Positions 14,642 through 53,201 of a DNA stretch of 64,000 nucleotides are shown one piece after another. A program made the position numbers and the translations under genes. The notes beneath the pieces were generated by a model. That model did no database searches. It saw only the letters and a list, made by a program, of their open reading frames with translations, and was not told the origin of the DNA. Within the stretch, counting starts at the first letter, position 1. Each line of letters opens with the position of its first letter. This DNA is from Deltaproteobacteria bacterium (GTDB taxonomy: Bacteria; Myxococcota; Kuafuiibacteriia; Kuafuiibacteriales; Kuafuiibacteriaceae): the NCBI GenBank assembly GCA_011526105.1, contig WYAZ01000031.1, positions 131,796 through 195,795 of the forward strand, read 5' to 3'.

Positions 14642-15640
14642 TCATTTCGACGGGTCGGTGGGGCGCTCGGGCGGGATCGAGACCCGAAGCGTGTCGAGTT
14701 CGTCTCCGCGCTTGGGATGAGCATGGGATGAGCCCGCTTGGAACGCAGTGGCCCGGTCTCGACCCGCGAGCTTGCTGTGATAGAGCGCGGAGTCGGCTCG
14801 AACAAAGAGCTCCATGGGGCCCGCGTCCGGGTTGTCGACCTCCAGCTCGGCGACCCCAATGCTGAAGCTCAGCGTATGACGCCGGTCGTTCACGGTGATC
14901 GGATGATTCCGGACGCTCTCGACGATGCGCTGCGCGAACCTGAGCACGAGATCGATAGACTCCCCACGGCAGATGATCACGAACTCGTCGCCCGCGTAGC
15001 GAGCGACCACGTCCTCTCTGCGCTTGGCACGTTCGAGCAGGCGAGCGACGCTCTTCAGGACCTCGTCCCCGACCGGGTGACCGTAAGTGTCGTTGATCGA
15101 CTTGAAGCCGTCGACGTCGATGAGCATGAGGGCCAGCGGCGTCTTGTGCCGACGGGAAAAAGAGATCTCCTGATCGAGCCGCTGCATCAGGTACCGCCGG
15201 TTGGCGAGCTCGGTGAGCGGGTCGCTCATGGCAGCCATGCGCATCTGGTGAATCAGCTCGGTCTCGTTCACGTCCTCGAAGCGCACTCGGATCACGGTCT
15301 CACCCGAGAGTTGAATCCGCTGACCGTCTTGCAGACCTGAGACCTGGCGGGCTTGGCCCTCGACGTACATGCCATAGCCAGAGTCGAGGTCTCGAATCCG
15401 ATAGCCGCCCTCTGGATTACGTTCGATCACGGCGTGACGTCGCGACATGTACGGATCGCGGATCCGGAAATGCGATGCCTCTCCGCGTCCGACCGTCCCC
15501 CCGCTGGGCGGCACGCGATAGTAAAGGCCAGCGTCTGGTCCGGTCAGGACCATGATGGACAACACGTTGCGTTCGGGCAGCGCGGAGGGGCCGTCGTTGC
15601 TCGAGAAGGTGTCTTCATCGTCGAGGTAGCCCAAGGGCAC
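14642..15640 (-). CDS. FHA domain - GGDEF-like protein with degenerate AGDEF motif (paralogue of 11744..12697)
   Basis: 332 aa; FHA signature, GGDEF fold with RYAGDEF instead of GG(D/E)EF; I-site-like RxxD context present. Confidence 0.8.
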   Translation of the reverse strand: MPLGYLDDEDTFSSNDGPSALPERNVLSIMVLTGPDAGLYYRVPPSGGTVGRGEASHFRIRDPYMSRRHAVIERNPEGGYRIRDLDSGYGMYVEGQARQVSGLQDGQRIQLSGETVIRVRFEDVNETELIHQMRMAAMSDPLTELANRRYLMQRLDQEISFSRRHKTPLALMLIDVDGFKSINDTYGHPVGDEVLKSVARLLERAKRREDVVARYAGDEFVIICRGESIDLVLRFAQRIVESVRNHPITVNDRRHTLSFSIGVAELEVDNPDAGPMELFVRADSALYHSKLAGRDRATAFQAGSSHAHPKRGDELDTLRVSIPPERPTDPSK

Positions 15641-25932: not shown

Positions 25933-28314
25933 TCACGCTATCGAATAGCCGAGGTATCCGCGCGGCTCGGGTGGTCGCGCCCCCCTCGGAGGTGGGGCGA
26001 GCACGGCGGGGAGCACCTCGCTCATCTCGGACACGAACACGACCTCGATCGCGTCCCTCACCGAGTTCGGCAGCTCGTCGTAGTCCTCCGCGTTTCGTGC
26101 GGGGAGCACCACGCGCTTGATGCCGCGGGCGTGCGCGGCGAGGACCTTTGCCTTGATGCCGCCCACCGGCAGGACCCGGCCCCGCAGCGTCGCCTCGCCG
26201 GTCATCGCGACGTCATCACGAAGCCTCTGGCCAGACAGCAGGGAGGCGAGCGCGGCGAACATGGTGATGCCGGCCGAAGGGCCGTCCTTGGGCGTGGCCC
26301 CCGCGGGGACGTGCAAGTGAACGTCGCGATCCCGCAGGATGTCCTCTCGGATCCCGAGGCCCTTCGATTGCGCGAGTACGTAGGTGAGCGCGGCCTGCGC
26401 GGATTCCTTCATCACGTCGCCGAGCTGACCGGTGACGACGAGCTTGCCTTGACCGGGGACGAGGGAGGCCTCGACGTAGAGCACGTCTCCGCCGACCGGG
26501 GTCCAAGCCAGGCCGACCGCAACTCCGGGTTGGCTGGGGCCTTCGTGAGCGTCCTCGGTGAACTTCCGTCGGCCGAGCAGCTCCTTTAGGTCGCCCTTCT
26601 GCACTCGGAGTGGTGCATCGAGTTCCGAGCGCACCTTCTTTACGGCGGCCGCGCGAAACAGGCGGCCGAGCACTCGCTGGAGCTGACGCACGCCGGCCTC
26701 GCGCGTCCAGCCGGCGATGAGATCTTCGAGAGCGTCGTCGTCGAGCGCGAGGTCGTCGGGCGACAGCCCGGAGTTCTCCGCCAACTTCTTCCACACGTGT
26801 CCGCGGGCGATACCTCGCTTGTCCTCGCTGGTGTAGCCGTCGATCTGCAGAACCTGCATGCGGTCGCGGAGGGGGGCCGCGATCTCCGAAAGGTCATTTG
26901 CGGTCGCAATAAAGAGGGCCTTCGAGAGATCGAAGGGGAGCTCGAGATAGTGGTCGGTGAAGTTACTGTTCTGCTCTGGATCGAGGATCTCGAGGAGCGC
27001 CGCCGCAGGGTCGCCTTGCCACCCGCGTCCGAGCTTGTCGACCTCATCGAGCAGGACGACTGGATCCTGCACCGCCGCTCGACGAAAGCCCTCGAGGAGT
27101 CGGCCCGGCCGAGCCCCCACGTAGGTTCGACGGTGTCCTCGGAGCTCGGCTTCGTCGCGAACGCCGCCGAGCGCCACGCGCAGAAGCTTGCGTCCCGTGG
27201 CGTCCGCGATCGCCTGAGCGATGCTGGTCTTGCCCACCCCCGGCGGGCCCACGAGCAGGAGCACGTCCGCGCGTCCGCGACCCGAGAGCTTTCGCACCGC
27301 CATGTACTCCAGGACTTGGCGTTTGACTTCCTCGAGGCCCGAGTGCGTTTCGTTGAGCGTCTTCTCGATGGTGTCGAGGTCAATCTCGGTGGCGCTCGCT
27401 CGATTCCACGGGAGGTCGGCCACCCAGGTGAGCCAGTCGATGGTGACGGAGCGCTCGGGGGTGGTGCGACCGAGACGATCGAGGCGACGCAGCTCTTTGT
27501 CGACGGAGGCTTGAACCTCGGGCGGGAGGTCGCGAGCGACGAGGCGCGTACGAAGCTCGCCGAGGTCATCATCGTCACCTTCTCCGAGCTCCTGTTTGAT
27601 GGCCTCGAGCTGCTTGCGAAGCAACACCTCTCGGTTCTGGTCGTTGACGTCTGACATGACGCGGGCGCGAATGCTCTTCTGCGCGTCGATCAGATCCCGG
27701 ACCGCCTGAAGCTTCTTCAGGACCTTCTCTGCCCTCACGACCGGATCGAGCGTGAGCAGGATGTCCTTCTTCCACTCGTCGTCGTTCTCGAGCACCGCGG
27801 CCAGCATGTCGAGCAGCACGCCCTCGTCCTGGATCTGCGCGGCGATGCTCAGCATGGGAATGTTCTCCGCGAGGCCGCGAAGCTCCTCCAGCGTCCTTCG
27901 AAGCAGCGCCCGGGCGGCCTGTGCCTCGGGCCCATCCGGAAACTCGTCCGAGATGCGCTCATGACGAGCCCTGAGAAACGGCGTCTCGGTCTCGAACTCG
28001 AGGGAGACCCGGGTGATGCCCTGGATGAGCACGGACTTCACGTCCTTGTTCTCGGCCACGTCGCGCACGATCCGCGCGAGTGTCCCCACCGCGAGAAGAT
28101 TGTCGGGCGTCGGCGCTTGGGTGCCGTCCTTTTGGGCGGCGACGATGATGTAGCCCGTTGCGCGCGCTGCTTCGAGCGCGGCGAGGGATTGGCTGCGACC
28201 CACCGAGAAAGGCGTGGCGAGGCCCGGCAGCAGCACCCCGCTGCGCAGGGGCAGGACGGGGAGTTCGGAGGGCAGGCCCTCGGGAACATCGAAACTCAGC
28301 TCAAAATCGACCAC
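25933..28314 (-). CDS. lon: ATP-dependent Lon protease
   Basis: 793 aa; Lon N-domain, GPPGVGKTS Walker A, C-terminal DGPSAGITM catalytic Ser motif. Confidence 0.9.
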
Positions 28315-28511
28315 GTGACTCCTTTGGCGCGCCCTTTTGCGGCCGTTTCCGCGAGCCTGACCACCTCCCGCGAAGGGTCAAACCGAAGCCTCCGAGATCC
28401 CTATCGTGTGAGGGACATCTGTCGACGCATTGAGTCGTGTCACCGAGAGGACACACGAGCTTCTCGGGCTTGTCGCCCAGGGAGAACAGAGAACCAAGTA
28501 CACCTAAGGCC

Positions 28512-29297
28512 ATGAAGCAGCTCGCCATCGGCCTCTGCCTTTCCATGAGTGCGCTCTCGAGTGCGCCCGCGTTCGCTCAAGCGCCCGAGGCGCTTGCACT
28601 CGAACTCGTTCGCCTCCGAGGTGAGGTTGATGCTGTCGAGTCGGCGCTCTCGGAGAAGCGAGATGCGCGGAGCGGCCAGATCCGGGCACTCGCCGCGCAG
28701 AAGGCCTCGGTCGAGGCCGAGCTCCGGCGTGAGGAGCTCCGGCTGCGGCAGCTCGAACAGGCCTTGGCCGCGGAGAAGACGCGTGTCGAGGGCGCGGGGC
28801 GCGCCGAGGCCGAGCTTCTCCCGGTCGTACTGGATGCGGCGGAGCGTCTGGAGAAGTCTTTGGACCATGGCGTGCCCTTTCGAGTCGAGGATCGCCGAGC
28901 CGAGCTCGATCGCATCAAGAAAGATTTGAACGAGGGACTGCTCTTGCCCAGCGCCGGGATCACGCGCCTGTGGGCATGGGTGGAAGACGAGCTTCGCCAG
29001 AGCCGAGAGAGCGGCCTACACCAACAAGTCATCCCGATCGACGAGCGAGAGGTGCTCGCAGACGTCGTTCGCGTGGGCATGGTCGCGCTCTACTTCCGCA
29101 CCCCGGAGGGTCGGTTCGGGCTCGCACGCAAACTGGCGACCGGAGGCTATCGATACGAGGAACTTCCGGACGAGACCTCCTCGAAGCAGGTCGCCAAGCT
29201 CTTCGAGTCGATGGAGCGCCGCATTCGTGCCGGCTTCTTCGAGCTGCCCAACCCTGAACCCGGGGTCTCTGGCCGCGCGGCGGAGGCTCGTCGATGA
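28512..29297 (+). CDS. Periplasmic coiled-coil protein, DUF3450-like (TtpB-like) of an accessory TonB system (start re-placed to ATG 28512, MKQLAIGLCLSMSALSSAPAFAQ)
   Basis: Signal peptide, long heptad coiled coil, conserved C-terminal block; first gene of exbB/exbD/tonB cluster with 4-bp overlaps. Confidence 0.55.
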   Translation: MKQLAIGLCLSMSALSSAPAFAQAPEALALELVRLRGEVDAVESALSEKRDARSGQIRALAAQKASVEAELRREELRLRQLEQALAAEKTRVEGAGRAEAELLPVVLDAAERLEKSLDHGVPFRVEDRRAELDRIKKDLNEGLLLPSAGITRLWAWVEDELRQSRESGLHQQVIPIDEREVLADVVRVGMVALYFRTPEGRFGLARKLATGGYRYEELPDETSSKQVAKLFESMERRIRAGFFELPNPEPGVSGRAAEARR

Positions 29298-30694
29298 GAC
29301 GGCTCTTGATCAGCACCGCGCTCCTTTCGGCGAGTGCTACGTCCGCTCTGGCGGAACCCAGCGCGCTCGAGAAAGCCTACGCCAAGGAGCTCGCCTACTT
29401 GAAGGCCGAGAAGGCCGCACTCGAGGCGCGCCTCGCCGCAACAGATCTCTCGACCTTGAAGGCTGAGAAGCAGCTCGAGTCGGAGCTCCGCGCTGCCGAA
29501 GACCGCTTGCTGCTCGCGCGCCGACGCGCGGAGGAGATCGAAGGACGTCTCCGCGGGCTCGAGCGACAGTCGGATGGCGAAGAGCGCTCGAGCTTCGTGC
29601 GGGAGTCGGTCGCGCGTGCGGAAGAGACCCTCGGTGGTTATGGTGTCTCCGCGTCGAGTGACCCCGAGGCTCTGCTTCCGGATGCCGTGCGTTCGGTCTT
29701 CGTAAGCGCCTCGAGGGCGATCGAAGAGGGCGCGCAGCTCCGACGTGGGCCGGGCACCTTCTTTCTCGCGGACGGACGTCAAGTCGAAGGCCAGCTCGTT
29801 CATTGGGGTCGGGTCGCGGCCTTTGGTGACAGCCCGGAAGGCGCCGGAATACTCGTTCCGGCGGGCGGCGGGCGCCTTCGCGTATGGGACGAACCGGCAG
29901 CGGCGGTCGCGGTGGCCCTGGCCCGAGGCAGCGCGCCCGCGGTGCTTCGTACCTTCCTCTTCGAGGCGACCGACGTCGCGGTGAAGAAGCGCGAGGCCAA
30001 GACGGTCGCCAAGGAACTCGCGCTGGGTGGTTCCATCGCTTACGTCATCGCGGCGCTCGGCCTTTTGGCGCTCCTGATGGTCATGCTTCGTTCGGTCCGT
30101 CTCCTCGCCGAGGAGGCGCGCGTCGGAAACCTGGTCGATGAGGTGGTGGTCTTGGTGACCGAGGGCCGGCTGAGCCAAGCGCGCGAGCGAGTGGCTGCTG
30201 CCGGCGGCACCATGGCCCGCGTTCTCCAGTCCACGCTCGACGCCCTCGCGGGTCCCCGGGCCCAACGCGATGACGTGGTGCACGAAGCGATGCTTCGCGA
30301 GATTCCCGGGGTCGAGCGCTTCAGCAGCGCGATCTTGGTGTTCGCGGCGGTGGCGCCGCTGCTCGGTTTGCTCGGCACGGTCACAGGCATGATCTCGACC
30401 TTCGACGTGATCACCGAGTTCGGCACCGGCGACCCGCGTATGCTCTCCGGCGGAATCTCAGAGGCCTTGATCACCACGAAGCTCGGACTCGTAGTCGCGA
30501 TTCCCGCGCTGCTCGCCGGCACCTTGCTCAATGGTCGCGCCGACGCACTCCTGGCTTCGATCCAACACGGAACCCTGCGTGTGCTCAATGCGGCGGATCG
30601 CGACAAGGAACGTGCTACGCCGAACACTGCGCTCGAGACGAGCACCGCCGAGAGCGCACTCGCCTTCGGGGCGCCGGTCACGGGGTCATCGTGA
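29294..30694 (+). CDS. MotA/TolQ/ExbB-family proton-channel protein with large N-terminal periplasmic domain (TtpC-like)
   Basis: 466 aa; signal peptide, ~230-aa coiled-coil periplasmic region, then 3 TM with ...PLLGLLGTVTGMISTFDVIT... ExbB signature. Confidence 0.7.
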   Translation: MRRLLISTALLSASATSALAEPSALEKAYAKELAYLKAEKAALEARLAATDLSTLKAEKQLESELRAAEDRLLLARRRAEEIEGRLRGLERQSDGEERSSFVRESVARAEETLGGYGVSASSDPEALLPDAVRSVFVSASRAIEEGAQLRRGPGTFFLADGRQVEGQLVHWGRVAAFGDSPEGAGILVPAGGGRLRVWDEPAAAVAVALARGSAPAVLRTFLFEATDVAVKKREAKTVAKELALGGSIAYVIAALGLLALLMVMLRSVRLLAEEARVGNLVDEVVVLVTEGRLSQARERVAAAGGTMARVLQSTLDALAGPRAQRDDVVHEAMLREIPGVERFSSAILVFAAVAPLLGLLGTVTGMISTFDVITEFGTGDPRMLSGGISEALITTKLGLVVAIPALLAGTLLNGRADALLASIQHGTLRVLNAADRDKERATPNTALETSTAESALAFGAPVTGSS

Positions 30695-31212
30695 GCATCT
30701 ACCTCGACCAGCTTCTGGGCCTGCTCTCCAAGACCGGCAGCGTCATGCTCCCGCTCATGCTGACCGGCGCGCTCCTCTGGTACGGGCTTGGCTATCGCGC
30801 CGCGGTGCTGCTGTCGTTCGACCGAACACGACTGCAGGAGATGCTCAGCGGGGGCACGAATGCGCGGGTCGAGGAGGCGCTGTTCCCTCACCGGGCGGAC
30901 CTCGCTCGGTTCTCGGTCATGAATGACAGCTTGGTGGGTCTCGCGCCGTTGCTCGGACTGCTGGGGACCGTCACCGGCATGATCGAGACCTTCGACGCCA
31001 TCGGAGACAGCGTTCTCCTCTCCGCCACGGGAGGGGGCATCGCCGGGGGCATCTCCGAAGCGCTCTTCTCGACTCAGGTGGGTCTCATGATCGCGGTGCC
31101 GGGACTGCTGCTCGGGCGGCTGCTCGATCGCAGAAGAGAAGAGCTGGAGATGGAGCTCGACCGCGTGTTGAGCCTGGCCGAAGTCCGACCGGAAGGCGAG
31201 GCCAGCTCGTGA
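30691..31212 (+). CDS. exbB: ExbB/TolQ-family proton channel
   Basis: 173 aa; APLLGLLGTVTGMIETFDAIG signature, 3 TM. Confidence 0.8.
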   Translation: MSIYLDQLLGLLSKTGSVMLPLMLTGALLWYGLGYRAAVLLSFDRTRLQEMLSGGTNARVEEALFPHRADLARFSVMNDSLVGLAPLLGLLGTVTGMIETFDAIGDSVLLSATGGGIAGGISEALFSTQVGLMIAVPGLLLGRLLDRRREELEMELDRVLSLAEVRPEGEASS

Positions 31213-31622
31213 AGCCCCTTCCCAAGAAACACCGGCCCTCCGGAATCGACATGTCGCCGCTCATCGACATGGTCTTCATCCTGCTCATCTTCTTCATGGT
31301 CTCCACAACGTTCGTGAAGGACGCGCAGGTCGAGCTTTCGAGACCGAGCGCAAAGAGTGCCTCCAAGGCCTCGACGAAGTCGCTGCGGGTCAGCGTCGAT
31401 CGACAGGGCGCGGTTTATCTCGACGGGGCGCCCACGCGAGCATGGATGCTTCAGTCCAAGCTGCGGGACGCATTTCGCGGGGGCGCGGAGAAGATGGTGC
31501 TCGTGGTGGCTGACCAAGAAGCCTCGGTGGCAAAGCTCGTGGAAGTCGTGGACCAATGCCGCCTGGCGGGCGCAGTCGACGTGACGGTGGCGACCGAGAA
31601 GGAATACGGAGCCGGGGGCTGA
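31209..31622 (+). CDS. exbD: ExbD/TolR biopolymer transport protein
   Basis: 137 aa; IDMSPLIDMVFILLIFFMVSTTF single TM with conserved Asp, periplasmic domain. Confidence 0.8.
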   Translation: MKPLPKKHRPSGIDMSPLIDMVFILLIFFMVSTTFVKDAQVELSRPSAKSASKASTKSLRVSVDRQGAVYLDGAPTRAWMLQSKLRDAFRGGAEKMVLVVADQEASVAKLVEVVDQCRLAGAVDVTVATEKEYGAGG

Positions 31623-31624
31623 GC

Positions 31625-32263
31625 ATGTTTGGGCAGTGGCAGAGGCATCTCGTCGCCGGGCTCGGCGCGCTCGTGGGCGGGCTGTCTCTCTCGATCTTCA
31701 TGCTGGTGCTCAATCGCCCGGTGGAGCAGGACGCCCGCAAGAACGCCGCGCTCGAGCGCGAGATCGAGATCGTTCGCCCTCCCAAGAAGGAGCGTCCGGT
31801 CGCCGAGCGGAAGACTCCGCCCAAGCCAGAGCGCCGGCCCGTGGCCCCGAGGCCGCAGCTCGCCACCGATCTTTCTGCGCTCGGATCCGGCGTTGCGCTC
31901 TTCGACGCGAGTGCGTTGGTGGGGGTGGGCGAGGCGCTGCTCGAGGATAGCGGCAGCGCCGAGGACATGGTGATGACCGCAGACGCGGTGGACAGCCAGC
32001 CCAAGCCGCTCGGAACCAATCGCTCCCCGGCGCCGCCACCCGAGGCCCAACGCAAGCGAGTGAGCGGTTACGTGACCCTCCGGATGGTCATCGACGAGTC
32101 GGGTCAAGTCCGCGACGCGCGCGTGGTCGAGTCTTCACCCACCGGCTTCTTCGACGCCGCGGTGCTCGAGGTCGCGCCCTCCTGGCGGTTTGAGCCCGCA
32201 ACGTACCGCGGCAAGCCGGTGAGCCTCCGGGTCGATCAGACGATTCGGTTCAACCTCGGGTGA
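31625..32263 (+). CDS. tonB: TonB energy transducer (start re-placed to ATG 31625, MFGQWQRHLVAGLGALVGGL...)
   Basis: N-terminal TM, Pro/Lys-rich spacer (PPKKERPVAERKTPPKPERRPVAPRP), C-terminal TonB_C fold (GYVTLRMVIDESGQVRDARVVESSPTGFFDAAVLEVAPSWRFEPA). Confidence 0.75.
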   Translation: MFGQWQRHLVAGLGALVGGLSLSIFMLVLNRPVEQDARKNAALEREIEIVRPPKKERPVAERKTPPKPERRPVAPRPQLATDLSALGSGVALFDASALVGVGEALLEDSGSAEDMVMTADAVDSQPKPLGTNRSPAPPPEAQRKRVSGYVTLRMVIDESGQVRDARVVESSPTGFFDAAVLEVAPSWRFEPATYRGKPVSLRVDQTIRFNLG

Positions 32264-32266
32264 CGG

Positions 32267-33436
32267 ATGATGAAGCTCTGGCGATACATCGGGTCCTTTC
32301 ATCTTGCGCTGCTCACGGTCGCCGTGGCGCCTCCTGCGGAGGCGGCGCGCGACAAGAAGCAGAAGTCGGTCGAGCGGGTTGTGCTCGCCCGCGTGCTGCT
32401 CCGAGACGGACTCCCAGAACGTGCACTCAGCGTGTTGGAGGCGCCTCCCGAGGAAGGGGAGACAATCGATCTCGGCGAGTTCCACCGCGTGCGTGGTCTC
32501 GCCGCGATGGAACTGCGTAGGTATCCCGAAGCAGTGAGCGCCTTCGAGCGCGCGATGGAGAACGGGGAGCAGACCGCGCCGACCTTCTTTGGACTCGCCA
32601 ACGCGTTGCTCGGCGCCGAGCGATATCCCGAGGCCCTCGCGATTCTGAAAGAGGCCCCGTCCGAGCTCGAGCAGAACCCGGCACGCTACCGGCTCGAGGC
32701 AAACATCCAGTACCGAGCTGGGCACAGGCACCGGGCTTTTGACGCGCTCGACCGCGGGGTCTCACGTTTTCCCGATGACCGAGAGCTGACGCGCCAGAGA
32801 CTCGGACTTCTCCTCGAGCTGGGCCTGTACACCGAGGGCATCGAGTCCGCGCGCGCGCTACTCGTCGAAGGCAAGTCGGCAGAGCAGGACTACCTCGCGC
32901 TCAGCGTGGCACTCCTGAATGCGGGCCAGCACGAACGCGCGCTCGCGCTTCTGGAGGACGGGGTCCTGCGCTGGCCAGGCGCGGTTCAAATGAGAAAGCA
33001 GCTCGCGCGGGCCTATGCGGACGCCGGCTCCCCGCGTTCCGCGGCCGCGGTGCTCATGCCGCTGGCCGGATCCGACGGGGACCTTCCGCTCATGACCGCG
33101 GAGCTGCATCGCAGGGCCGGTCAGATGCGAGAAGCCCTGCGCGCCAACGCGGAGGTGCTCGACCAGACCGCGAAGATGAGGCAGCGCCTCAGCCTGCTGC
33201 TCGAACTCGAACGTTTCGAGGAGGCCTCTCTGCTGGAGACGCGCCTGGAACGGCTCGGACTGCTTCGGGAGGAGCCCATCATCTACGCGCTGGCCTACGC
33301 GAGTCACTACGCTGGCCGCCCCGAACAAGCAGAGCGTCTGCTCACTCGGCTCACCGAACCAGAGTGGTTCGACAAGGGAACCGCCATTCGCCGGGCCATC
33401 GAAACCTGCCGACGAGACCCCACGCTTTGCGACTGA
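32267..33436 (+). CDS. TPR-repeat protein (TtpD-like) with signal peptide
   Basis: 389 aa; signal peptide then ~8 TPR-like helical repeats; immediately follows tonB. Confidence 0.6.
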   Translation: MMKLWRYIGSFHLALLTVAVAPPAEAARDKKQKSVERVVLARVLLRDGLPERALSVLEAPPEEGETIDLGEFHRVRGLAAMELRRYPEAVSAFERAMENGEQTAPTFFGLANALLGAERYPEALAILKEAPSELEQNPARYRLEANIQYRAGHRHRAFDALDRGVSRFPDDRELTRQRLGLLLELGLYTEGIESARALLVEGKSAEQDYLALSVALLNAGQHERALALLEDGVLRWPGAVQMRKQLARAYADAGSPRSAAAVLMPLAGSDGDLPLMTAELHRRAGQMREALRANAEVLDQTAKMRQRLSLLLELERFEEASLLETRLERLGLLREEPIIYALAYASHYAGRPEQAERLLTRLTEPEWFDKGTAIRRAIETCRRDPTLCD

Positions 33437-36400
33437 CGTCCGCGAGCGTGGTCCTGGCGCTCCTCCTTCCCGGACCCTTGATGGCCGAAGCCTCCGAACT
33501 CGAGGGCCGCTTCGTGGCGCTCGTGCTCGATGGAGCCGGGAGGGGGGTGCATCGGGCGAGCATCCTCGTGGATGGACGCAGAGTGGGTGAGACCGACGAG
33601 GAGGGCCTCTTTGGCGGCCACCTGCTCCCGGGTGAACATCAGCTTCGCGTCGAGCACGAAGTGGGGACGGCCACCACGACCTTTCGTCTGGTCGCGGGTC
33701 GCGAGACCGAGATCGTCGTCATGCTCGGGCGCAGTCCACCCTTCATTGATGTGGATGCCCCTGAGGTTCAGACCTCGACCACTCAGGCGGTGGTGACCTC
33801 GACGCGGACGCGCAGCTTGAATGGTCGGGTGACGAGTCGGGAGAGTGGCGAGCCGGTGCTCGACGCGCGTGTTTTTGTTCGTGGCTCGGCTTCATCGGCC
33901 CGCACCGATGCCGCCGGTCGTTTCGTCGTGACGATGCCGGAGTCCACCGTCGACATTGTCGTCATTCACGCCCAGTTCGCGAGCACGTCGGTGACGGTGG
34001 GGCCCGTTCAGACAGACCTGGAGGTGTCGCTCGAACCACAAGTGGTGGCGCTCGGGGACATGCTGGTCACCATCCCCAAGCCGGATCTTGGGGGTCTCGC
34101 TCAGCAGCTCTCGGAACGCCGCGACTCGGCCTCGGTCACTGACGGGGTCGGGCTCGAGGAGATGAGGAAGACCGCCGACAGCACCGCGAGCACCGCCACG
34201 AGACGCATCGTGGGCGCGAGTGTGGTCGGCGGCGCCTATCTGAATGTTCGTGGGCTCGGGGGTCGGTACACCAACGTGCGTTTGAACGGGGTGGCGTTGC
34301 CGAGCACGGACCCCGACCTGCCTGGCTTTCAGATTGACCTCTTCCCCGTCAGCCTGCTGACCGGTCTCATCGTCACCAAGACCTTCACCCCCGACATCCC
34401 CGGCGACTTCGCGGGTGGTTCGATGAACGTCATCACCCGCGACTATCCAGAGCGATTCATGCTCAACCTCAGTTTGAGCCTGTCGTTCAGGCACGACACG
34501 ATCTTCAGGGACACGCTGAGCTACGACGGCGGGGCCTTCGATTTTTTGGGCTTCGATGACGGCTCTCGATCGCTGCCGGATGCGGTGCCCGACGACCAGA
34601 AGCTCACGGCGGGCCGAACCGGTTTGCCGCGGGCGACGGTCAATGAGATCGCACGGAGCTTCACTCCGGTGTGGGCCCTCGACCGCGGCCCCGCGATGCC
34701 GGACCTCTCCATCGCGGCGAGCGCAGGAGACTCGAGCCCAGTGGGGCAAGACGGTCGTCTCGGCTACCTCGTCACGCTCGCGTATCGGCGCACCACGCAA
34801 AACAACGTGGACCTCGTGACCAACGTCAAGACCGAAGGCGAGGGCGATGAACGCCGGGTGGTTCCGCGGGAGCAGCTCGACCGAGAGACCGGCACCCGCC
34901 AAGGCCAGCTCGGCGCCTTGGGCACCCTGAGCTACCGACTGAACGCCTACGATCAGCTGCGTCTGGCCACGCTCTTTACCTCCACCGCGGATGATGAAGC
35001 GGCGCGCACCAGCGGCCTCTCGGAAGAGGAGGGCACCGCCATCGATCGAAGTCAGATGACCTTTGTGGAGCGGCGTTTGCTGTTTAATCAGCTCCTGGGT
35101 CGGCACGAAGACATCGTCGGCGAGTTGGATCTGGACTGGCAAATCAACGCTTCGATCGTCGCCCGGAACCAACCCGACACCCGAAACCTCCTCTACATCC
35201 AGGGGCCGGAAGGTTTTGTGTATCGAAACGTGACCGGCAGCGGCGAGCGCCTCTACACCGAGCTCGGTCAGAACGACTTCGGCGCCGGGTTCGATCTCAC
35301 GCACCCGGTCTTTGAAGAGGGCAAGCTGAAGGGGGGCTTTCTCGGGCGGATCTCGAGCCGCGGCTTTCAGGCTCGGCGCTTCGGGACGCGCTTCGTGGCC
35401 GACGACCCCGACGTGCGGCTCTTGGCGCCGAACGAACTCTTCGCGCCCGACAGCTATGGTCCGATCCTCGAAATGGAAGAAGTGACCCGTCCGGACGATG
35501 GCTACGACGCCTTCGAGCTGCTCTCCGCCTGGTACGCGATGCTCGATGCACCACTCGTCGGTCCGCTTCGACTCGTGGGGGGCGCGCGCGTCGAACTCTT
35601 CCGCCAAGAGATCGAGTCGAAGGCCCCGTTTCCCGTGACCGAAACCAAGGCGGGGGAGCGGACGGACCTCGACGTGCTTCCGAGCGCGGGGCTCGTGTAT
35701 CGGCTCAGCGAGGAGATGGCGGTGCGCGCTTCCTACGGAGGTACGGTCGCGCGGCCCTTGGTTCGTGAGCTCGCACCATTTCTGAATCAAGACTTCATCC
35801 GGCGGCGCAACATCCAGGGCAATCCGGACGTGGGGCGCACGTACGTGCACAACTTCGATCTGCGATGGGAGCTCTTTCCGAGCGACACCGAGGTGCTCGC
35901 GGTCTCCGGCTTCTACAAGCTCTTTGAAGCCCCGATCGAGTCGGTGGTCCTCGATTTCCGCGGCAACATCACCTACGCGAACATTGAGCGAGCCGAGAAC
36001 TTTGGGGCGGAGCTCGAGGCGCGGCTCGGACTCGGGCGACTCTCGAGCGCGCTCAGCGAGTTCTCTTTCCTCGCGAACTTTGCGCTCATCCACTCTCGCG
36101 TCAGCCTTTCCCCCGAGGATCAACGCCTGGCGACCTCCGCGGAGCGTCCGCTCGCCGGGCAGTCGCCGTTTGTAGCCAATCTGTCACTCGCATATGCGCC
36201 AGATGGCACCGGGCTCTCGTTCAATCTGTTCTACAACGTCTTTGGCCGACGGATTCAAGACGTGGGTCGATTGGGTTTGCCGGATGTTTACGAGGAGCCG
36301 TTTCACTCTCTGGACGCAACCGCCTTCTGGCAGTTCGCCGAAGGTTGGACCGCGAGCGTCTACGCGCGGAACCTGCTCAATCAGGCGCAACGGTTCGACC

Positions 36401-36471
36401 AAGGTGGCTTCCCGTTTTTGCGCTCCGAGCAAGGGGTCACCGCGGGCGCTCGGCTCGCTTGGGAGATGTGA
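33364..36471 (+). CDS. TonB-dependent outer-membrane receptor, Oar-like (N-terminal carboxypeptidase-regulatory-like domains + plug + 22-strand barrel); start ambiguous (ATG 33364, TTG 33427 or GTG 33445)
   Basis: Two CarbopepD_reg-like beta-sandwich segments, plug motif NVRGLGGRYTNVRLNGVALPS, long barrel with C-terminal aromatic-rich strand. Confidence 0.8.
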   Translation: MVRQGNRHSPGHRNLPTRPHALRLTSASVVLALLLPGPLMAEASELEGRFVALVLDGAGRGVHRASILVDGRRVGETDEEGLFGGHLLPGEHQLRVEHEVGTATTTFRLVAGRETEIVVMLGRSPPFIDVDAPEVQTSTTQAVVTSTRTRSLNGRVTSRESGEPVLDARVFVRGSASSARTDAAGRFVVTMPESTVDIVVIHAQFASTSVTVGPVQTDLEVSLEPQVVALGDMLVTIPKPDLGGLAQQLSERRDSASVTDGVGLEEMRKTADSTASTATRRIVGASVVGGAYLNVRGLGGRYTNVRLNGVALPSTDPDLPGFQIDLFPVSLLTGLIVTKTFTPDIPGDFAGGSMNVITRDYPERFMLNLSLSLSFRHDTIFRDTLSYDGGAFDFLGFDDGSRSLPDAVPDDQKLTAGRTGLPRATVNEIARSFTPVWALDRGPAMPDLSIAASAGDSSPVGQDGRLGYLVTLAYRRTTQNNVDLVTNVKTEGEGDERRVVPREQLDRETGTRQGQLGALGTLSYRLNAYDQLRLATLFTSTADDEAARTSGLSEEEGTAIDRSQMTFVERRLLFNQLLGRHEDIVGELDLDWQINASIVARNQPDTRNLLYIQGPEGFVYRNVTGSGERLYTELGQNDFGAGFDLTHPVFEEGKLKGGFLGRISSRGFQARRFGTRFVADDPDVRLLAPNELFAPDSYGPILEMEEVTRPDDGYDAFELLSAWYAMLDAPLVGPLRLVGGARVELFRQEIESKAPFPVTETKAGERTDLDVLPSAGLVYRLSEEMAVRASYGGTVARPLVRELAPFLNQDFIRRRNIQGNPDVGRTYVHNFDLRWELFPSDTEVLAVSGFYKLFEAPIESVVLDFRGNITYANIERAENFGAELEARLGLGRLSSALSEFSFLANFALIHSRVSLSPEDQRLATSAERPLAGQSPFVANLSLAYAPDGTGLSFNLFYNVFGRRIQDVGRLGLPDVYEEPFHSLDATAFWQFAEGWTASVYARNLLNQAQRFDQGGFPFLRSEQGVTAGARLAWEM

Positions 36472-36504
36472 CCGCTCCATTCACGATCAACAGAAGGAAG
36501 TCAG

Positions 36505-37830
36505 ATGATGCGTATCGAGCACACCATGGTTCTTGGGTTGTCGGCCGCGCTGCTTGTGGCGTGCGGCGATGACACCCCGAGTGGCAACCCAGACGCGGGC
36601 GGAAACGGGGGCGTCGTGGAGCTTTCGGGAGAGATCACCGCGGACACGATCCTTACGAAGGACAAAGAGTACTACCTCACCGCGCTGACGTACGTGGTGT
36701 CGCCGGCGACGCTCACCGTCGAGGCGGGCACGGTGCTGAGAGGTGATCCGGGTTCCGCGCTGGTCGTCACCCGAGGCGCGCGACTCGTGACGAGCGGAAC
36801 AGAGAGCGAGCCGGTGATCTTTACGAGCTCGAGTGAGGTCGGCGAACGACGTTCCGGCGATTGGGGTGGCATCGTCCTTCTCGGGGCCGCGCCCATCAAC
36901 GTCACCGGGGGAAAGAACCAGGTCGAGGGCATCGACCCCAACGAGAACCGCGCGAGCTACGGGGGCTCGGACGACACCCACGACTGCGGATCACTTCGGT
37001 ACACCCGCATTGAGTTTGCCGGCTTTGAGCTCTCCACCGACAACGAGCTCAACGGTCTGACCGTCGCCGGCTGCGGAAGCCAGACGAAGCTCGAGTACGT
37101 GCAGGTGCACAAGGGCAAGGACGACGGCATCGAGTTCTTCGGCGGCTCTCCGACCGCGAGGTACATCGTGGTCACCAGCGCCGAGGACGACTCCATCGAC
37201 TGGGACTTCGGCTTCCGCGGACGCATGCAGTTTGTGCTCATCCAGCAGAACCCAGCGGACGCCGACTCCGCGTTCGAGGCGGACAACCAGCAGGACAACA
37301 ACGACGCCAGCCCGCGGTCCAAACCCACGATCTACAACGCGACCTTGCTCGGCCCGCGCGGAACGAGTGGCACGCAGCACGGCATGGTGCTCCGTCGCGG
37401 CACCTGGGGCATCCTGAAGAACTTGATCGTGACCGGCTATCCGAAGGCCGCGGTTGATCTTCGTGATACCGCCACCGTGAACGGCCTCACGATGAGTCCG
37501 GCGGAGCTGCTCATCGAGAACAGCATCTTCTTCGATAGCGTGATTCACTTCGACGACGACGCGGATAAAGACGATGACGGCGCCTTCGACGAGGCGGCCG
37601 CGCTCTCGGACGCTGCCCGCAACAACCGCATCGACGTGGACCCCGGGCTCCCGGATGCGTTCAACCTCACGCGGCCTCGCGCGGTGCCCCCGGCGAGCAG
37701 CCCGGCCGCGAGCGGAGGGGCGAGCCCGCCGAGCGACGGCTTCTTCGACATGAGCGCGACCCATATCGGCGCGTTCGCGCCTGGCGGAGCAGACTGGACC
37801 GAGGGCTGGACCGCTTTTCCGGCGAGCTGA
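36505..37830 (+). CDS. Lipoprotein, hypothetical (possible beta-helical fold)
   Basis: Lipobox MMRIEHTMVLGLSAALLVACG; Gly/Thr-rich repetitive strands; no family recognised; directly downstream of TBDR. Confidence 0.5.
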   Translation: MMRIEHTMVLGLSAALLVACGDDTPSGNPDAGGNGGVVELSGEITADTILTKDKEYYLTALTYVVSPATLTVEAGTVLRGDPGSALVVTRGARLVTSGTESEPVIFTSSSEVGERRSGDWGGIVLLGAAPINVTGGKNQVEGIDPNENRASYGGSDDTHDCGSLRYTRIEFAGFELSTDNELNGLTVAGCGSQTKLEYVQVHKGKDDGIEFFGGSPTARYIVVTSAEDDSIDWDFGFRGRMQFVLIQQNPADADSAFEADNQQDNNDASPRSKPTIYNATLLGPRGTSGTQHGMVLRRGTWGILKNLIVTGYPKAAVDLRDTATVNGLTMSPAELLIENSIFFDSVIHFDDDADKDDDGAFDEAAALSDAARNNRIDVDPGLPDAFNLTRPRAVPPASSPAASGGASPPSDGFFDMSATHIGAFAPGGADWTEGWTAFPAS

Positions 37831-37912
37831 ACCGAGGAGAGACGAGACCGAGTCGCATCTGGGCTCTGTCCTGCTGGTTGCAATTGCGAAGCGTTCTCAA
37901 TATCCTTCGCTC

Positions 37913-38401
37913 ATGGACGCTTTCCTCATCCCCCTTCGCTGGGTGCACGTCATCGCCGGGTCCACTTGGTTCGGCGAGGTCGTGGTGATCAACTTCATCC
38001 TGATCCCCGTGCTCGGAACACTCGGGGTCGAGGAGCGACGCCGATTCCTGACCACCGTCTTTCCGCGCATCTTCAGGATGGCCTCTGTGCTCTCCGCGAC
38101 CGCAGTGATCAGCGGCCTCGCGCTCCTGACCTTGGTGACGAAGGGTGACTTCAGCTTGCTCTTCACCGGGCGATGGGGCCTCGCCATCCTGCTCGGCGGC
38201 ACGCTCGGCACGCTGCTGACGGTGTTTCACTTCTTCATGGAGAACCGACTCGCGCGCCGCATCGGTGTGGGCTGCGAGTACGTCCCCTCCGACGAGCAGC
38301 TCGCGGACGTGCACACGAAGCTCAAGGTCGTGCCCCGCGGGGGCATGCTGGTGATCTCGACGATCTTCTTCTCGATGATGTTCGCGGTGCGCGGGATCTG
38401 A
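37913..38401 (+). CDS. Integral membrane protein (4 TM), hypothetical
   Basis: 162 aa, four hydrophobic helices. Confidence 0.45.
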   Translation: MDAFLIPLRWVHVIAGSTWFGEVVVINFILIPVLGTLGVEERRRFLTTVFPRIFRMASVLSATAVISGLALLTLVTKGDFSLLFTGRWGLAILLGGTLGTLLTVFHFFMENRLARRIGVGCEYVPSDEQLADVHTKLKVVPRGGMLVISTIFFSMMFAVRGI

Positions 38402-38406
38402 GGTGC

Positions 38407-41400
38407 TCACATGTTCCGGCGGTACTGCCCGCCGACTTGATACAGCGCTTCCGACATCTGCCCCAGTGAAGCGATCTTGCTCACGGAGAGCAGGCTCTCG
38501 AAGACGTTGCCGCCCGAGAGCGCGGTCTCCTTGAGCGCGGAGAGCGCCGGGCCACTGGCTGCGCGGTTTCTGGCCCAGAACGCCTCCTTCGAGCGGATGG
38601 CGTAGCGCTTTTCTTCCTCGGTGGAGCGAATGACCTCGGCCGGGATGATCGTAGGGGAGCCCTTCGCATCGAGGAAGGTGTTCACGCCCACGATCTCGAG
38701 CTCGCCCGAGTGCTTCAGCGTCTCGTAGTGAAGGGACTCGTCCTGGATCTTGGAGCGCTGGTACATGCGCTCCATCGCGCCGAGCACCCCTCCGCGCTCC
38801 GAGATGCGTCGGAACTCGGTGAGCACCGCCTGCTCCACGAGGTCGGTGAGCTCCTCGATAATGAACGCGCCCTGGACTGGGTTCTCGTTCCTCGAGAGGC
38901 CGAGCTCCTTGTTGATGATGAGCTGAATGGCCAGCGCGCGGCGCACGCTCTCTTCGGTGGGGGTGGTGATGGCCTCGTCGTAGGCGTTGGTGTGCAGCGA
39001 GTTGCAGTTGTCGAAGAGCGCGTACAAGGCCTGAAGCGTGGTGCGGATGTCGTTGAAGGCGATCTCTTGGGCATGCAAGGACCGGCCGCTGGTTTGGATG
39101 TGATACTTGAGCTTCTGGCTGCGTTCGTCGGCGCCGTACTTGTCGCGCATCGCCTTGGCCCAAATGCGCCGCGCGACCCGGCCGATGACCGAGTATTCGG
39201 GATCGAGCCCGTTCGAGAAGAAGAATGAGAGGTTGGGCGCGAACTGGTTCACGTCCATGCCGCGCGACAAGTAGTACTCCACGAAGGTGAAGCCGTTGGC
39301 CAAGGTGAAGGCGAGCTGCGTGATGGGGTTCGCGCCGGCCTCCGCGATGTGATAGCCGGAGATCGACACCGAGTAGAAGTTGCGCACGTCGCGGGCGATG
39401 AAGGACTCTTGGATGTCGCCCATCATTCGGAGCGCAAACTCGGTCGAGAAGATGCAGGTGTTCTGGGCCTGGTCTTCTTTGAGGATGTCCGCCTGAACCG
39501 TGCCGCGAACGACCTTCATCGTCTCGGCCCGAATCCGCTCGTAGACCTCCGACGGGAGCACTTGGTCTCCGCTGACCCCCAGCAAGAAGAGGCCTAGGCC
39601 GTCGTGGCCTTCCGGAAGCTCGCCCTGATACGCGGGACGCGGCTGCCCGAGCCCCTGGTAGATCTCGGCAATGCGCTTTGTAACCTCATCGGTCAGCCCT
39701 TGGGCTCGGATGTGCTTCTCGCACTGCTGATCCACCGCCGCGTTCATGAAGAACGCGAGCACCATGGGCGCGGGCCCGTTGATGGTCATGGACACACTCG
39801 TGCTGGGGTCCGCGAGGTCGAAGCCCGAGTAGAGCTTCTTCGCGTCATCCAGAGTGGCCACGCTCACGCCGGAGTTGCCGACCTTGCCGTAGATGTCGGG
39901 CCGGAGATGCGGGTCCTCGCCGTACAAGGTGACGGAGTCAAAGGCGGTCGACAGTCGCTTGGCCGGCAGGCCGCGCGAGACGTAATGGAAGCGGCGGTTG
40001 GTCCGTTCCGGCCCACCTTCGCCGGCGAACATACGTGCGGGGTCCTCGCCCTCGCGTTTCAGCGGAAATACGCCCGCGGTGTACGGGAACGAGCCCGGCA
40101 CGTTCTCTCTCAGCTGCCACCGCAACACATCACCGAACTCGCGATAACGGGGCAGCGAGACCCTCGGGACCTTCGTGCCCGAGAGCGACGTGCTGTAGAG
40201 CGCCTGCTCGATGACCCGACCCCGCACCGTGTACCGATACTGGTCGGCCCGGTAGCGCGATACGGTCTCCGGCCACGCATCGAGGAGCGCGCGGCACCTG
40301 TGATCGAGTTGCTGCTCGAGGGCGTGACGGCGACTCTCGAGTTCGGCGATGTACGCCGGCTCGGACTTGTCGCTCCGAAGGATCTCGATGGTGCCGGAGA
40401 GCTGATAGAGCTTGCGCGCGAGCGCACACTGCGACTCCACCCACGCCTCGTAGCGGTCGCTGTTCTCCGCGATCTCCGCGAGGTAGCGAGAGCGCTCCGG
40501 CGGGATGATGTAGATCTTCTCGCTGGCTTTTTCGGTCAGGGCGCCCGGACGGCCGAGCTTTGTGCCGCTGCGCTCGTCGAGGAGCTGGGTGATGCGTCGG
40601 TAGAGGTGGTTGGTGCCGGGGTCCGCGAACTGAGAGGCGATGGTGCCGTAGATGGGGAGGCCCTCGTCAATGGCGTCGAAGAGCTTGTGGTTGCGCTTGT
40701 ACTGCTTTCGGACGTCGCGCAAGGCGTCTTGCGAGCCTCGCTTGTCGAACTTGTTGATGGCGATGACGTCCGCGAAGTCGAGCATGTCGATCTTCTCGAG
40801 CTGGGTTTGGGCGCCGTACTCGGAGGTCATGACGTAGAGGGAGACGTCCGAGTGGTCGGTGATCTCGGTGTCGGACTGCCCGATGCCGCTGGTCTCGAGC
40901 ACCACGAGGTCGAAGCCCGCGGCGCGCACGATGCGCAGGGCGGCCGCGACGTGTTTGGACAGGGCGAGGTTCGCCTGCCGCGTGGCCAAGGAGCGCATGT
41001 AGACCCGTGGTGAGCTGACGGCATTCATGCGAATTCGATCGCCGAGCAAGGCGCCGCCAGTGCGACGCTTGGACGGGTCGACCGAGAGCACGGCGACGGT
41101 CTTGTCCGCGTGGTCCTCGAGGAACCGACGAACGAGCTCGTCCACGAGCGAGGACTTGCCCGAACCTCCGGTGCCGGTGATGCCGAGCACCGGCGGCCGT
41201 GCGGCGCCCTTTTCGATCTCGAGCGCCGATTCGAGCGGCGCGAGGACCTCCGGATGATTCTCCGCCAGCGTGATGAGCCTCCCGATGGCCTGGGGGTCTC
41301 GAGCGCCAAGACGCTTAAGCTCGGCGCCGAGCTGGCTCGTCTCGACGGTGGCAAAGTCTGCCTTTTGCACGAGGTCATCGATCATGCCCTGCAGGCCCAT

Positions 41401-41784
41401 CGCACGGCCGTCGTCCGGGCTGTAGATGCGGGTGATGCCGTGTTTGTGGAGGCGCTCGATCTCGGTGGGCAGGATGGTGCCGCCGCCGCCCGCGAAGATC
41501 CGGATGTTTGCGCCGCGTTCCTCGAGAAGATCGTGCATGTACTCGAGGTACTCGACGTGACCCCCTTGGTAGGAGGTGAGCGCGATGGCCTGGACGTCTT
41601 CTTGGATGGCGCAGTCGACGATCTCCTGCACGCTGCGGTTGTGGCCCAGGTGAATGACCTCCACCCCCGAGGCCTGGATGATGCGGCGCATGACGTTGAT
41701 CGCGGCGTCATGCCCGTCAAAGAGAGAAGCGGCGGTGACGATCCGAACCGGATTCTTCGGGATGTAGCGTGCGGTGTCGGTCAT
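38407..41784 (-). CDS. icmF: Fused isobutyryl-CoA mutase (B12-binding domain + MeaB-like G-protein + mutase substrate domain); start re-placed to ATG 41784 ([14 protein letters not shown]...)
   Basis: N-terminal B12-binding (…DGHDAAINV…), G3E GTPase ([12 protein letters not shown]), C-terminal methylmalonyl-CoA-mutase-like TIM barrel; ~1125 aa as for IcmF. Confidence 0.85.
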
Positions 41785-42758
41785 GGAGAGCTCTTGTGCC
41801 GCTTCATCATTTTTTCCATCTCGGCGCAATGATCGATGTCATTGGCCCGGGGCGTGAACCAGACGAGATCGAAGGGCAGGGCGGTGGCGCCGTACCTCGA
41901 TGCGTAGGCGGTGGGGTCGTTCTCGCCGTCCTCGATCTCCACGAAACCGATGCTCAGGCTGAGTGGGGCGTTCAGCCGGCGCAGGTACCACGGTACGGCG
42001 CGGTCGGAGCGCGTGTGGCCGGCGCCCGCGATCAGGATCGCTCCGTCCGCGGGGGCCGCCAGGAGTTTGTCCGCCATGAGCGCATCTCGGGCCCGCTGTA
42101 TCTCCAGCATCGGCTTCAACATGTCGTCGGGCAGGTGACCGCAGTGTCCGTCGCGCAGCTCCGCGATGAGCGCGGCCTCGAGGTCTTCGGGCAACGGCTG
42201 GCCGAGCTGGTGTCGTTCGACGAGCGCCGCCGGCAACGTCTCCGTACCGCGCGCCACGGACATCGCACGGTCACGCGGCAGCATCGAGGCGATGAGGGGG
42301 AACTCGGCCTCCATCGTCGCCGCAAAGACGGGACGATACATCGCCCAGTCTGGCCAGCCCGAACGCGCCCAGTCGAGCCGGAGGGCCAGCGCATCCGGAT
42401 CACTGGGGGCGCGCGCTCGTTGGTCCTCGACGTCTTGCTGCCGGCTCTCCTCGATCATCTCGACAACGACGTGTGGCCTTCGGCCCGCTTCGGCGAGCCA
42501 GCGCACCGCGCGTGCCTGAAGCCGGTGGTGATCCGGGTTGTCGTGGGTCTCGCCGAGCAGCACAAACCGAGCCTCGATGGCCCTCGTCCTGAGTTCTGTC
42601 TCGGTGACGAACTGACCCCGCGCGACGTCATAGATCCGTCCCACGAGCGAGTGGTCCTGGCCGAGCGGCGATTGCCAAGCGTCGGGGGCAACCACTTGGC
42701 GGGCGCTGGCGCAGTGCAGGCCGGAGAGCGCGATGACGGCGAGAACGGAGGTGCGCAC
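41781..42758 (-). CDS. ChaN/Tiki-family (haem/iron-uptake-associated) periplasmic protein; start re-placed to GTG 42758 ([19 protein letters not shown] signal)
   Basis: [12 protein letters not shown] and later GAGH motifs of ChaN family; track ATG 42869 would overlap divergent neighbour by 45 bp. Confidence 0.55.
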
Positions 42759-53032: not shown

Positions 53033-53201
53033 CGGCCGACGTTTTTGCACGTTGGGTTCAATCATGGAAGGCCTGAGCCCCGGTGCAGTCCCTCGCGGCG
53101 GGTTTCCGTCGATATCTCAGGCAGTTCCGCCGAGCATCCGATGCGATATCCGGCCCGGCTCAATACGGTCACGCGCGGACGGGAAGGATGTGCAGCTTGT
53201 G

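Follow-up and report, generated by a model that had tools for sequence, protein, structure and literature searches.

Described TonB motors and receptor-lipoprotein pairs

The TonB2 and TonB3 energisers of Vibrio comprise TtpB and TtpC, ExbB and ExbD, TonB, and TtpD, encoded in that order; TtpB is a DUF3450 protein, TtpD is a tetratricopeptide repeat (TPR) protein, and all six are required for function (PMC6957404). A second kind of system pairs an outer-membrane receptor with a surface lipoprotein, as in ElpS of Caulobacter and the receptor encoded beside it. We describe here an operon at positions 28512-37830 on the + strand of a 64,000-nucleotide stretch of a Myxococcota genome (contig WYAZ01000031.1, positions 131,796 to 195,795; hereafter the window). 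The locus is a myxobacterial example of these two known kinds, a Vibrio-type Ton motor and a probable ElpS-type pair, fused in one operon.

In Vibrio, the first gene of the tonB2 operon encodes TtpB2, a DUF3450 protein of 255 aa, and the last encodes TtpD2, a TPR protein of 425 aa. The TonB2 system is Fur-regulated and is needed for siderophore uptake. To these six genes TonB3 adds one for an outer-membrane receptor, and it does not transport iron (PMC6957404). The function of TonB3 was called unknown in PMC10734418; in a recent preprint, tonB3 mutants grew worse on cell lysate.

ElpS is a surface lipoprotein of ~50 kDa with lipobox Cys20 and is cleaved at residue 38. Phosphate starvation was its sole inducer, with no induction by iron depletion, and its gene adjoins that of the TonB-dependent receptor (TBDR) CC0171 (PMC2996285). 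In F. johnsoniae, Fjoh_0545 is a TonB-dependent transporter (TBDT) with Plug, CarbopepD_reg_2 and OMP_b-brl_3 domains, and Fjoh_0546 (FII) is a pectin-lyase-fold lipoprotein related to ElpS. The two genes lie together in a phoBR cluster, and depletion of inorganic phosphate raises both 2^8- to 2^10-fold (PMC8115612). BT4055/BT4056 of Bacteroides is a further phosphate-starvation pair. BT4056 is the predicted outer-face lid of its TBDT, BT4055, and the proximity of this pair is kept in 621 genera (bioRxiv 10.1101/2023.03.17.533168).

Organisation and conservation of the eight-gene operon

Eight open reading frames, all on the + strand and joined by 4-bp overlaps or gaps of 2-33 bp, occupy 28512-37830. 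The first-pass annotation, an earlier reading of the same DNA, had described a six-gene energiser followed by a TBDR and a lipoprotein; all eight genes were found at the coordinates it gave, with the Pfam families it predicted. The first gene (28512-29297) encodes a TtpB-like coiled-coil periplasmic protein of 261 aa with a DUF3450 domain (PF11932, E = 1e-27) and a signal-like hydrophobic N-terminus that would form a cleavable signal peptide. The second (29294-30694) encodes a 466-aa TtpC-like protein of the MotA/TolQ/ExbB family. The MotA/ExbB signature expected in this protein was present, and it covers residues 308-424 only (PF01618, E = 2.2e-25). Hydropathy suggests a signal-like N-terminus, a periplasmic coiled-coil N-domain of ~225 aa and transmembrane helices at 247-265, 346-364 and 388-412. 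A short ExbB of 173 aa follows (30691-31212; PF01618, E = 1.2e-20, and matches below threshold to the equivalog models for TolQ and ExbB), and then an ExbD of 137 aa (31209-31622; PF02472, E = 4.5e-29) with one transmembrane helix predicted by hydropathy at 18-36. TonB (31625-32263, 212 aa) consists of one N-terminal transmembrane helix, a Pro/Lys-rich spacer and the TonB_C domain that had been proposed for it (PF03544, E = 1.8e-19; 68.5 bits on TIGR01352, where the cut-off is 27.1). The same 212-aa form was called in L084, a relative with 97% identity. The sixth gene (32267-33436) encodes a TtpD-like TPR protein of 389 aa that matched several TPR families (best E = 3.4e-15). Overlaps of 4 bp at 29294, 30691 and 31209 and gaps of 2 bp before 31625 and 3 bp before 32267 reproduce the spacing claimed earlier for these six genes.

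In composition and order, the six genes agree with the published layout of the Vibrio TonB2/TonB3 energisers (PMC6957404), so the resemblance that the first pass had recognised holds. The six protein types and their order are those of Vibrio, and the first and last proteins are of similar size (~260 and ~400 aa), with the Vibrio side taken from published descriptions. A TtpC-like protein with a long N-terminal extension accompanies the normal ExbB in both, and a receptor gene lies within the cluster, as in TonB3. Unlike in Vibrio, the receptor gene stands after the Ton genes and not before them, a beta-helix lipoprotein gene comes next, and there is no Fur-type context. The host also differs, being myxobacterium-like and not a marine gammaproteobacterium: GC content of the window is 64-66%, it encodes Ser/Thr kinases, FHA-sigma54 activators and FHA-GGDEF proteins, and the named proteins nearest to its products are from Polyangiaceae, Haliangium and other Myxococcota. 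Comparison with an Alteromonas cluster of the same layout gave modest similarity (TtpC, E = 3e-24; DUF3450 protein, E = 8e-7). Homologues of the TtpC-like protein stand at its place in related loci, with E-values as low as 8e-119, and the TPR protein likewise has homologues in place (E = 1e-39 to 3e-94) in loci of Nitrosomonas, Wenzhouxiangella, Bacteriovoracaceae and Myxococcota.

All eight genes, in unchanged order, were found in L084/L085 (97% identity), where the lon flank is as in the window, and in two relatives of ~60% identity. In one of these, L001, the unit has a response regulator gene and a GT21-PAP2 gene as neighbours; in the other, L086, M16 peptidases lie downstream. The receptor and lipoprotein genes therefore form a single, genuine unit with the energiser, as had been suggested, one that moves as a block. 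Positions 28512-37830 hold one operon, and it encodes an outer-membrane import system that is complete and has its own energiser: a six-part TonB motor, a receptor and a lipoprotein.

The receptor and its lipoprotein

The receptor gene (33427-36471) encodes a TBDR of ~1014 aa with a signal peptide, two CarboxypepD_reg-like N-domains, a plug and a large barrel. Pfam matches were to PF00593 (TonB_dep_Rec, 6.6e-32), PF14905 (OMP_b-brl_3, 2.1e-15), PF13620 (6.8e-13), PF13715 (1.1e-9) and PF07715 (Plug, 4e-5). Its start is most likely TTG 33427, because this codon yields a proper signal peptide, MRLTSASVVLALLLPGPLMA/EAS, and makes the gene overlap that of the TPR protein by 10 nt, as in L086. The automatic call in L084 begins at a downstream ATG and has no signal peptide. 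Alignment with EVVVEA of the Myxococcus homologue gives DMLVTI as the candidate TonB box. The SusC model TIGR04056 scored 21.4 bits against a cut-off of 368 and matched the N-terminal domain only. The NCBIfam model with the highest score on the receptor was the TonB-Xanth-Caul subfamily (177 bits, below its cut-off).

The lipoprotein gene (36505-37830) encodes an acidic right-handed beta-helix protein of 441 aa (PF28492, Beta_helix_4) with lipobox Cys20 and a disordered linker at 21-36. The AlphaFold2 model (predicted local distance difference test score, 89.9) is nearly all beta, with the helix beginning after the linker. All 120 lipoprotein homologues among the matches listed carry PF28492, and the family has 2,942 representatives (50% identity clusters) at E <= 1e-30, many with 2-6 tandem domains. 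The isoelectric point (pI) of the window protein is 4.3, and that of the family is ~4.05-4.75. Invariant Asp/Glu/His/Arg motifs (DDGIEFFGG, DDSxDWDxG, FEADN, LRRGT) lie on successive rungs. Identity with a Flavobacteriaceae homologue from a PhoBR-linked cluster is 38% over the full length.

Tandem fusions of two or three PF28492 domains per protein occur in Gamma- and Alphaproteobacteria and in Saprospiraceae (L057, L060, L062-L065, L068, L069, L071, L077, L081, L082). Proteins P0251-P0260 are also tandem, and representatives of 1,700-2,400 aa have up to 5-6 domains. Several members from Aquimarina and other Flavobacteriaceae (P0400, P0402, P0418 and others) are named "multidrug transporter" in NCBI and UniRef. 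For a beta-helix lipoprotein, this name seems to be an annotation error carried from record to record.

A Foldseek search of the Protein Data Bank returned tailspike depolymerases, pectate lyase Pel9A, PL6 alginate lyases, GH110 and NosD, all as weak beta-helix matches (E >= 3e-3, TM-score <= 0.41); because these matches are weak, no specific enzymatic class is assignable to the lipoprotein. They bear on one alternative, namely that the lipoprotein is a polysaccharide binder or a Ca-dependent lyase feeding oligosaccharides to the receptor, independently of phosphorus nutrition. Its structural neighbours are solely polysaccharide-active beta-helices (the tailspikes, Pel9A, PL6 and GH110), the rows of invariant Asp/Glu/Arg/His on successive rungs would suit such a role, and the best NCBIfam model for the receptor is a subfamily that includes carbohydrate importers. 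Glycan binding was also raised for FI/FII by Lidbury et al. However, the low quality of the structural matches counts against glycan import, as do the absence of recurrent carbohydrate-active enzyme or sugar-catabolism genes in the neighbourhoods, the occurrence of the pair in chemolithoautotrophic Nitrosomonas and the regulation of the studied members by phosphate. We consider this alternative rather unlikely.

Like ElpS, FII and BT4056, the lipoprotein has a mass of ~45-50 kDa, a Cys at about residue 20, a linker up to about residue 37 that is cleavable or disordered, and a beta-helix of the pectin-lyase type. Like Fjoh_0545 and its counterparts, the receptor encoded beside it has Plug, CarbopepD_reg_2 and OMP_b-brl_3 domains. 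Both groups are spread over Bacteroidota and Proteobacteria, and relatives of the window pair adjoin PhoBR genes. Two differences were seen. The window pair is joined in an operon with a six-gene Ton system, and no Pho regulator, Pho box or type II secretion system lies near it. When homologues were searched from an Aquimarina PF28492 protein, F. johnsoniae was not among the matches listed. Judged by fold, context and taxonomic spread, with the group known by its published descriptions, the window pair very probably belongs with ElpS, FII and BT4056. A TBDT working with an adjacently encoded surface lipoprotein is also found in SusC/SusD, BtuB-BtuG and XusA-XusB; their lid folds are unrelated to that of the window partner, which is a beta-helix and not SusD.

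Linkage of receptor, lipoprotein and Ton genes across 82 loci

We compared 82 loci with a PF28492 gene, drawn from species-representative genomes and relatives and spanning many phyla; no Vibrio locus was among the 80 that were retrieved. A receptor homologue was found near the lipoprotein gene in 63 of the 82 and directly adjacent in 50. The six-gene Ton cluster of the window type was linked in at least 11 loci, among them those of Nitrosomonas (L074), Wenzhouxiangella (L059), Bacteriovoracaceae (L070), Alteromonas (L081/L082), several Myxococcota and unclassified metagenome-assembled genomes. A four-gene TonB-ExbB-ExbD-ExbD cluster was linked in ~11 others, Myxococcaceae among them. The order of the parts varied (energiser-receptor-lipoprotein, lipoprotein-energiser-receptor or lipoprotein-receptor-energiser), which favours a functional linkage over a merely inherited one. 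The lipoprotein is thus a conserved genomic partner of the window receptor family, and we presume it to be the surface partner of the receptor.

A ~180-aa protein with no Pfam match is encoded directly 3' of the lipoprotein gene in Poribacteria, Gemmatimonadota and Acidobacteriota (L026, L027, L030, L032-L036, L038, L040, L047, L048, L061). In Poribacteria it is followed by a TonB_C protein.

Phosphate regulon context

Recurrent neighbours of the pair were tallied in the 82 loci. Pho-regulon genes (PhoB-like/PhoR-like, pstSCAB or ppx) lay within 10 kb in 28, distributed over at least seven phyla or classes. In gammaproteobacterial L057, L060, L063, L065 and L069, PhoB and a true PhoR (PF11808) are encoded immediately upstream, and the Alteromonas loci have PhoB-PhoR-PstS directly upstream. 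Genes for pstSCAB lie nearby in Gemmatimonadota, Nitrosomonas, Kordiimonas, Saprospiraceae and others, and ppx lies directly downstream in Acidobacteriota. PhoB-like regulators are adjacent in Myxococcota loci, including L001, the closest at 60% identity, in which the eight-gene operon is divergent from the regulator and the GT21-PAP2 gene. TIGR02154 (PhoB) was the best family for all ten adjacent response regulators tested (221-286 bits).

Sites resembling CTGTCAT-N4-CTGTCAT were found just upstream of gammaproteobacterial lipoprotein genes, against a background of 0.048 sites per kb-strand. In L063 (9657-9707), four CTGTCAT-like sites in 11-bp phase lie in the interval that separates phoB from the gene for the double beta-helix lipoprotein. 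Arrays of the same phase, far above background, occur at ~9500-9770 of L057, L060, L065 and L069. L001 gave only a weak GTCAC-N6-GTCAC direct repeat in the Pho-box scan. The GT21-PAP2 gene of L001 (1-1906, - strand) encodes a GT21/GT2 glycosyltransferase fused to a PAP2 phosphatase and is reminiscent of the phosphate-sparing lipid remodelling genes of other Pho clusters.

Context over the 82 loci points to the Pho regulon and not to metals. The first-pass annotation had suggested a metal-acquisition neighbourhood, and a role of the system in acquiring iron, haem or another metal, as for Vibrio TonB2, would be in line with the Fur regulation and siderophore role of that energiser. A ChaN gene (PF04187, E = 1.8e-42) and a weak Nramp-like gene do lie 4-8 kb downstream of the operon, and the conserved Asp, Glu and His of the lipoprotein could bind cations. 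However, ChaN and Nramp belong to other transcription units, beyond a small membrane-protein gene and an opposite-strand IcmF-like mutase, and neither flanks the unit in L001 or L086. On the siderophore-receptor model TIGR01783, whose cut-off is 223.5 bits, the receptor scored 42.5. Beside the pair, the 82 loci show recurrent Pho genes but no recurrent genes for siderophores, haem or ABC import. ElpS does not respond to iron depletion, MXAN_0272, the Myxococcus relative of the receptor (below), belongs to the two TBDR genes whose expression did not rise along with that of the myxochelin genes in predation, and the receptor-linked Vibrio variant, TonB3, transports no iron. The suggestion of a metal neighbourhood is therefore not upheld, and we regard metal acquisition as distinctly unlikely.

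The Myxococcus counterpart

The receptor had been called Oar-type at first. The oar locus of Myxococcus reads tonB1-exbB1-exbD1-exbD2-oar-mlpA, in which MXAN_1450 is Oar and MXAN_1451, next to it, is MlpA. In domain architecture the description stands: both receptors have a CarboxypepD_reg N-extension, a plug and a large barrel, and both have their own Ton system. Synteny leads elsewhere. The M. virescens lipoprotein gene closes the order TonB-ExbB-ExbD-ExbD-TBDR-lipoprotein, and its product shares a 90% cluster with the homologue from M. xanthus DK1622 (ABF90893/Q1DFM1). The gene order equals that of the cluster running from MXAN_0276 (TonB) to MXAN_0272 (TBDT) described by Gomez-Santos et al. 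Over ~900 residues (898 aligned positions), the window receptor and the M. virescens receptor of MXAN_0272 type share 38% identity, and in both systems a lipoprotein of the same family is encoded directly downstream and a dedicated Ton system upstream. Unlike the window, the MXAN_0272-0276 cluster has a four-gene TonB-ExbB-ExbD-ExbD energiser without DUF3450, TtpC or TPR proteins. By homology and gene order, the predicted Myxococcus counterpart of the window pair is the MXAN_0272-0276 cluster, not Oar.

MlpA (MXAN_1451) was considered as the identity of the lipoprotein and ruled out: it is not among the named PF28492 homologues, no Myxococcaceae homologue bears its name, and the Myxococcus copy lies in a cluster of the MXAN_0272-0276 type.

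Oar exports the protease PopC in M. xanthus, and an analogous export machine, in which receptor and Ton system send a protein or some other large cargo outward, might be imagined for the window. The Oar-type architecture with a linked Ton system is compatible with this, and so is the myxobacterium-like high-GC genome with its Ser/Thr kinases and FHA-sigma54 activators. However, lipoprotein homology and synteny lead to MXAN_0272-0276 and not to oar, and the export role is not common to the MXAN_0272 paralogue: its loss leaves development and PopC secretion unchanged, and PopC was not solubilised by it in E. coli. The unit has no conserved neighbour that could encode a cargo, and the pair is found in non-developmental bacteria of many phyla. 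Export is highly improbable in our judgement. Between the import and export that the first pass had left side by side, import is favoured, and nothing supports export over it.

Proposed function

On balance, we think that the pair is of the ElpS/CC0171, Fjoh_0545/0546 and BT4055/4056 kind and that the operon encodes an import machine most likely scavenging a phosphorus-containing substrate. From established Ton biology, ExbB/ExbD, with the TtpC paralogue and the accessory TtpB and TtpD, would convert proton-motive force into TonB movement. TonB would then contact the receptor TonB box (candidate DMLVTI), and the plug would be remodelled or opened. By analogy with ElpS and BT4056, the lipoprotein, held on the surface by the Cys20 lipid and a linker of ~16 residues, would capture or possibly process the substrate while sitting lid-like on the receptor. 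The substrate may be a phosphorus source too large or too scarce for porins. Speculatively, the acidity of the lipoprotein would fit a cation-bridged, mineral or polymeric phosphate or a phosphorylated glycopolymer; a phosphorylated glycopolymer would merge the glycan alternative with phosphorus scavenging.

Several observations weigh against phosphorus scavenging. The 64-kb window contains no pho or pst gene. A scan with the E. coli-type consensus found no Pho box of >=10/14 upstream of the operon and none that was convincing window-wide. The regulators beside the relatives score below the TIGR02154 trusted cut-off of 296 bits. A strongly acidic lipoprotein is no obvious binder of anionic phosphates, and refolded purified ElpS had no phosphatase activity (PMC2996285). 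In addition, nine loci with ample flanks have the lipoprotein gene and no receptor gene nearby; the orphan lipoprotein genes of Marinobacter, Alcanivorax and Methylophaga have neither a receptor gene nor informative neighbours.

A broader proposal can be put forward tentatively, with more doubt than confidence: the six-part TtpB/TtpC/TtpD motor may be a cross-phylum dedicated energiser of the ElpS-family pair, and the whole may be a pan-bacterial, Pho-controlled phosphorus importer whose lipoprotein captures metal-bridged or polymeric phosphate. If true, this would explain the orphan Vibrio TonB3, which is receptor-linked, does not handle iron and supports growth on cell lysate, and the acidic lipoprotein would capture phosphate species handled by no known transporter.

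The window itself adds one more, myxobacterial, example; the weight lies in the family-level link between TtpBCD motors, ElpS-type pairs and the Pho regulon. In phosphate-starved Flavobacterium and Caulobacter, family members rank with the most strongly induced and most abundant proteins. The link of motor, pair and Pho regulon offers a concrete testable function for the ElpS family and for TonB3-type energisers, and it could give orphan TonB3 a role. For this locus, it also corrects the labels "Oar-like secretion" and "metal uptake".

Flanking regions and other genes of the window

The operon shares a 197-bp intergenic region (28315-28511) with the divergent lon gene, and its promoter is presumed to lie there. 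Scans of 28000-38600 for sigma-70 promoters and terminators gave nothing above shuffled expectation. An inverted repeat, GTGTC-N8-GACAC, is present at ~28437-28454 in this region. The position of lon directly upstream is as first described; the linkage is not kept in L001 or L086. Because the flanks differ around the eight-gene unit in relatives, lon, the IcmF-like mutase, ChaN, an amidohydrolase and the Nramp-like gene are considered incidental.

Downstream, 82 bp after the lipoprotein gene, 37913-38401 (+ strand) encodes a 162-aa protein with 4-5 predicted transmembrane helices and no Pfam match (GC content at third codon positions, 0.90). It occupies the same place in L084 (97% identity), though not in L001 and L086, and may be either an inner-membrane part of the system or a protein with no connection to it. 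The IcmF-like mutase (38407-41829, - strand; 1140 aa), convergent with the operon, is a fusion of B12-binding, MeaB GTPase and methylmalonyl-CoA-mutase parts. Its adjacency gave rise to the idea of a cobalamin cargo, which was ruled out by the absence of the mutase at L001 and L086.

A DUF6209 protein is encoded at 61358-62227 (- strand), ~24 kb from the operon, and another at 15654-17147 of L086, ~5.5 kb past the unit, which may be coincidence. Elsewhere in the window, 6727-7446 (- strand) encodes a stand-alone Lon substrate-binding-domain protein, and 11744-12697 (+ strand) and 14642-15640 (- strand) encode two paralogous FHA-GGDEF diguanylate cyclases. Unusually for bacteria, the 993-aa product of 52518-55499 (+ strand) combines a PKD domain with a complete protein-arginine deiminase (PAD) domain (E = 4.7e-80).

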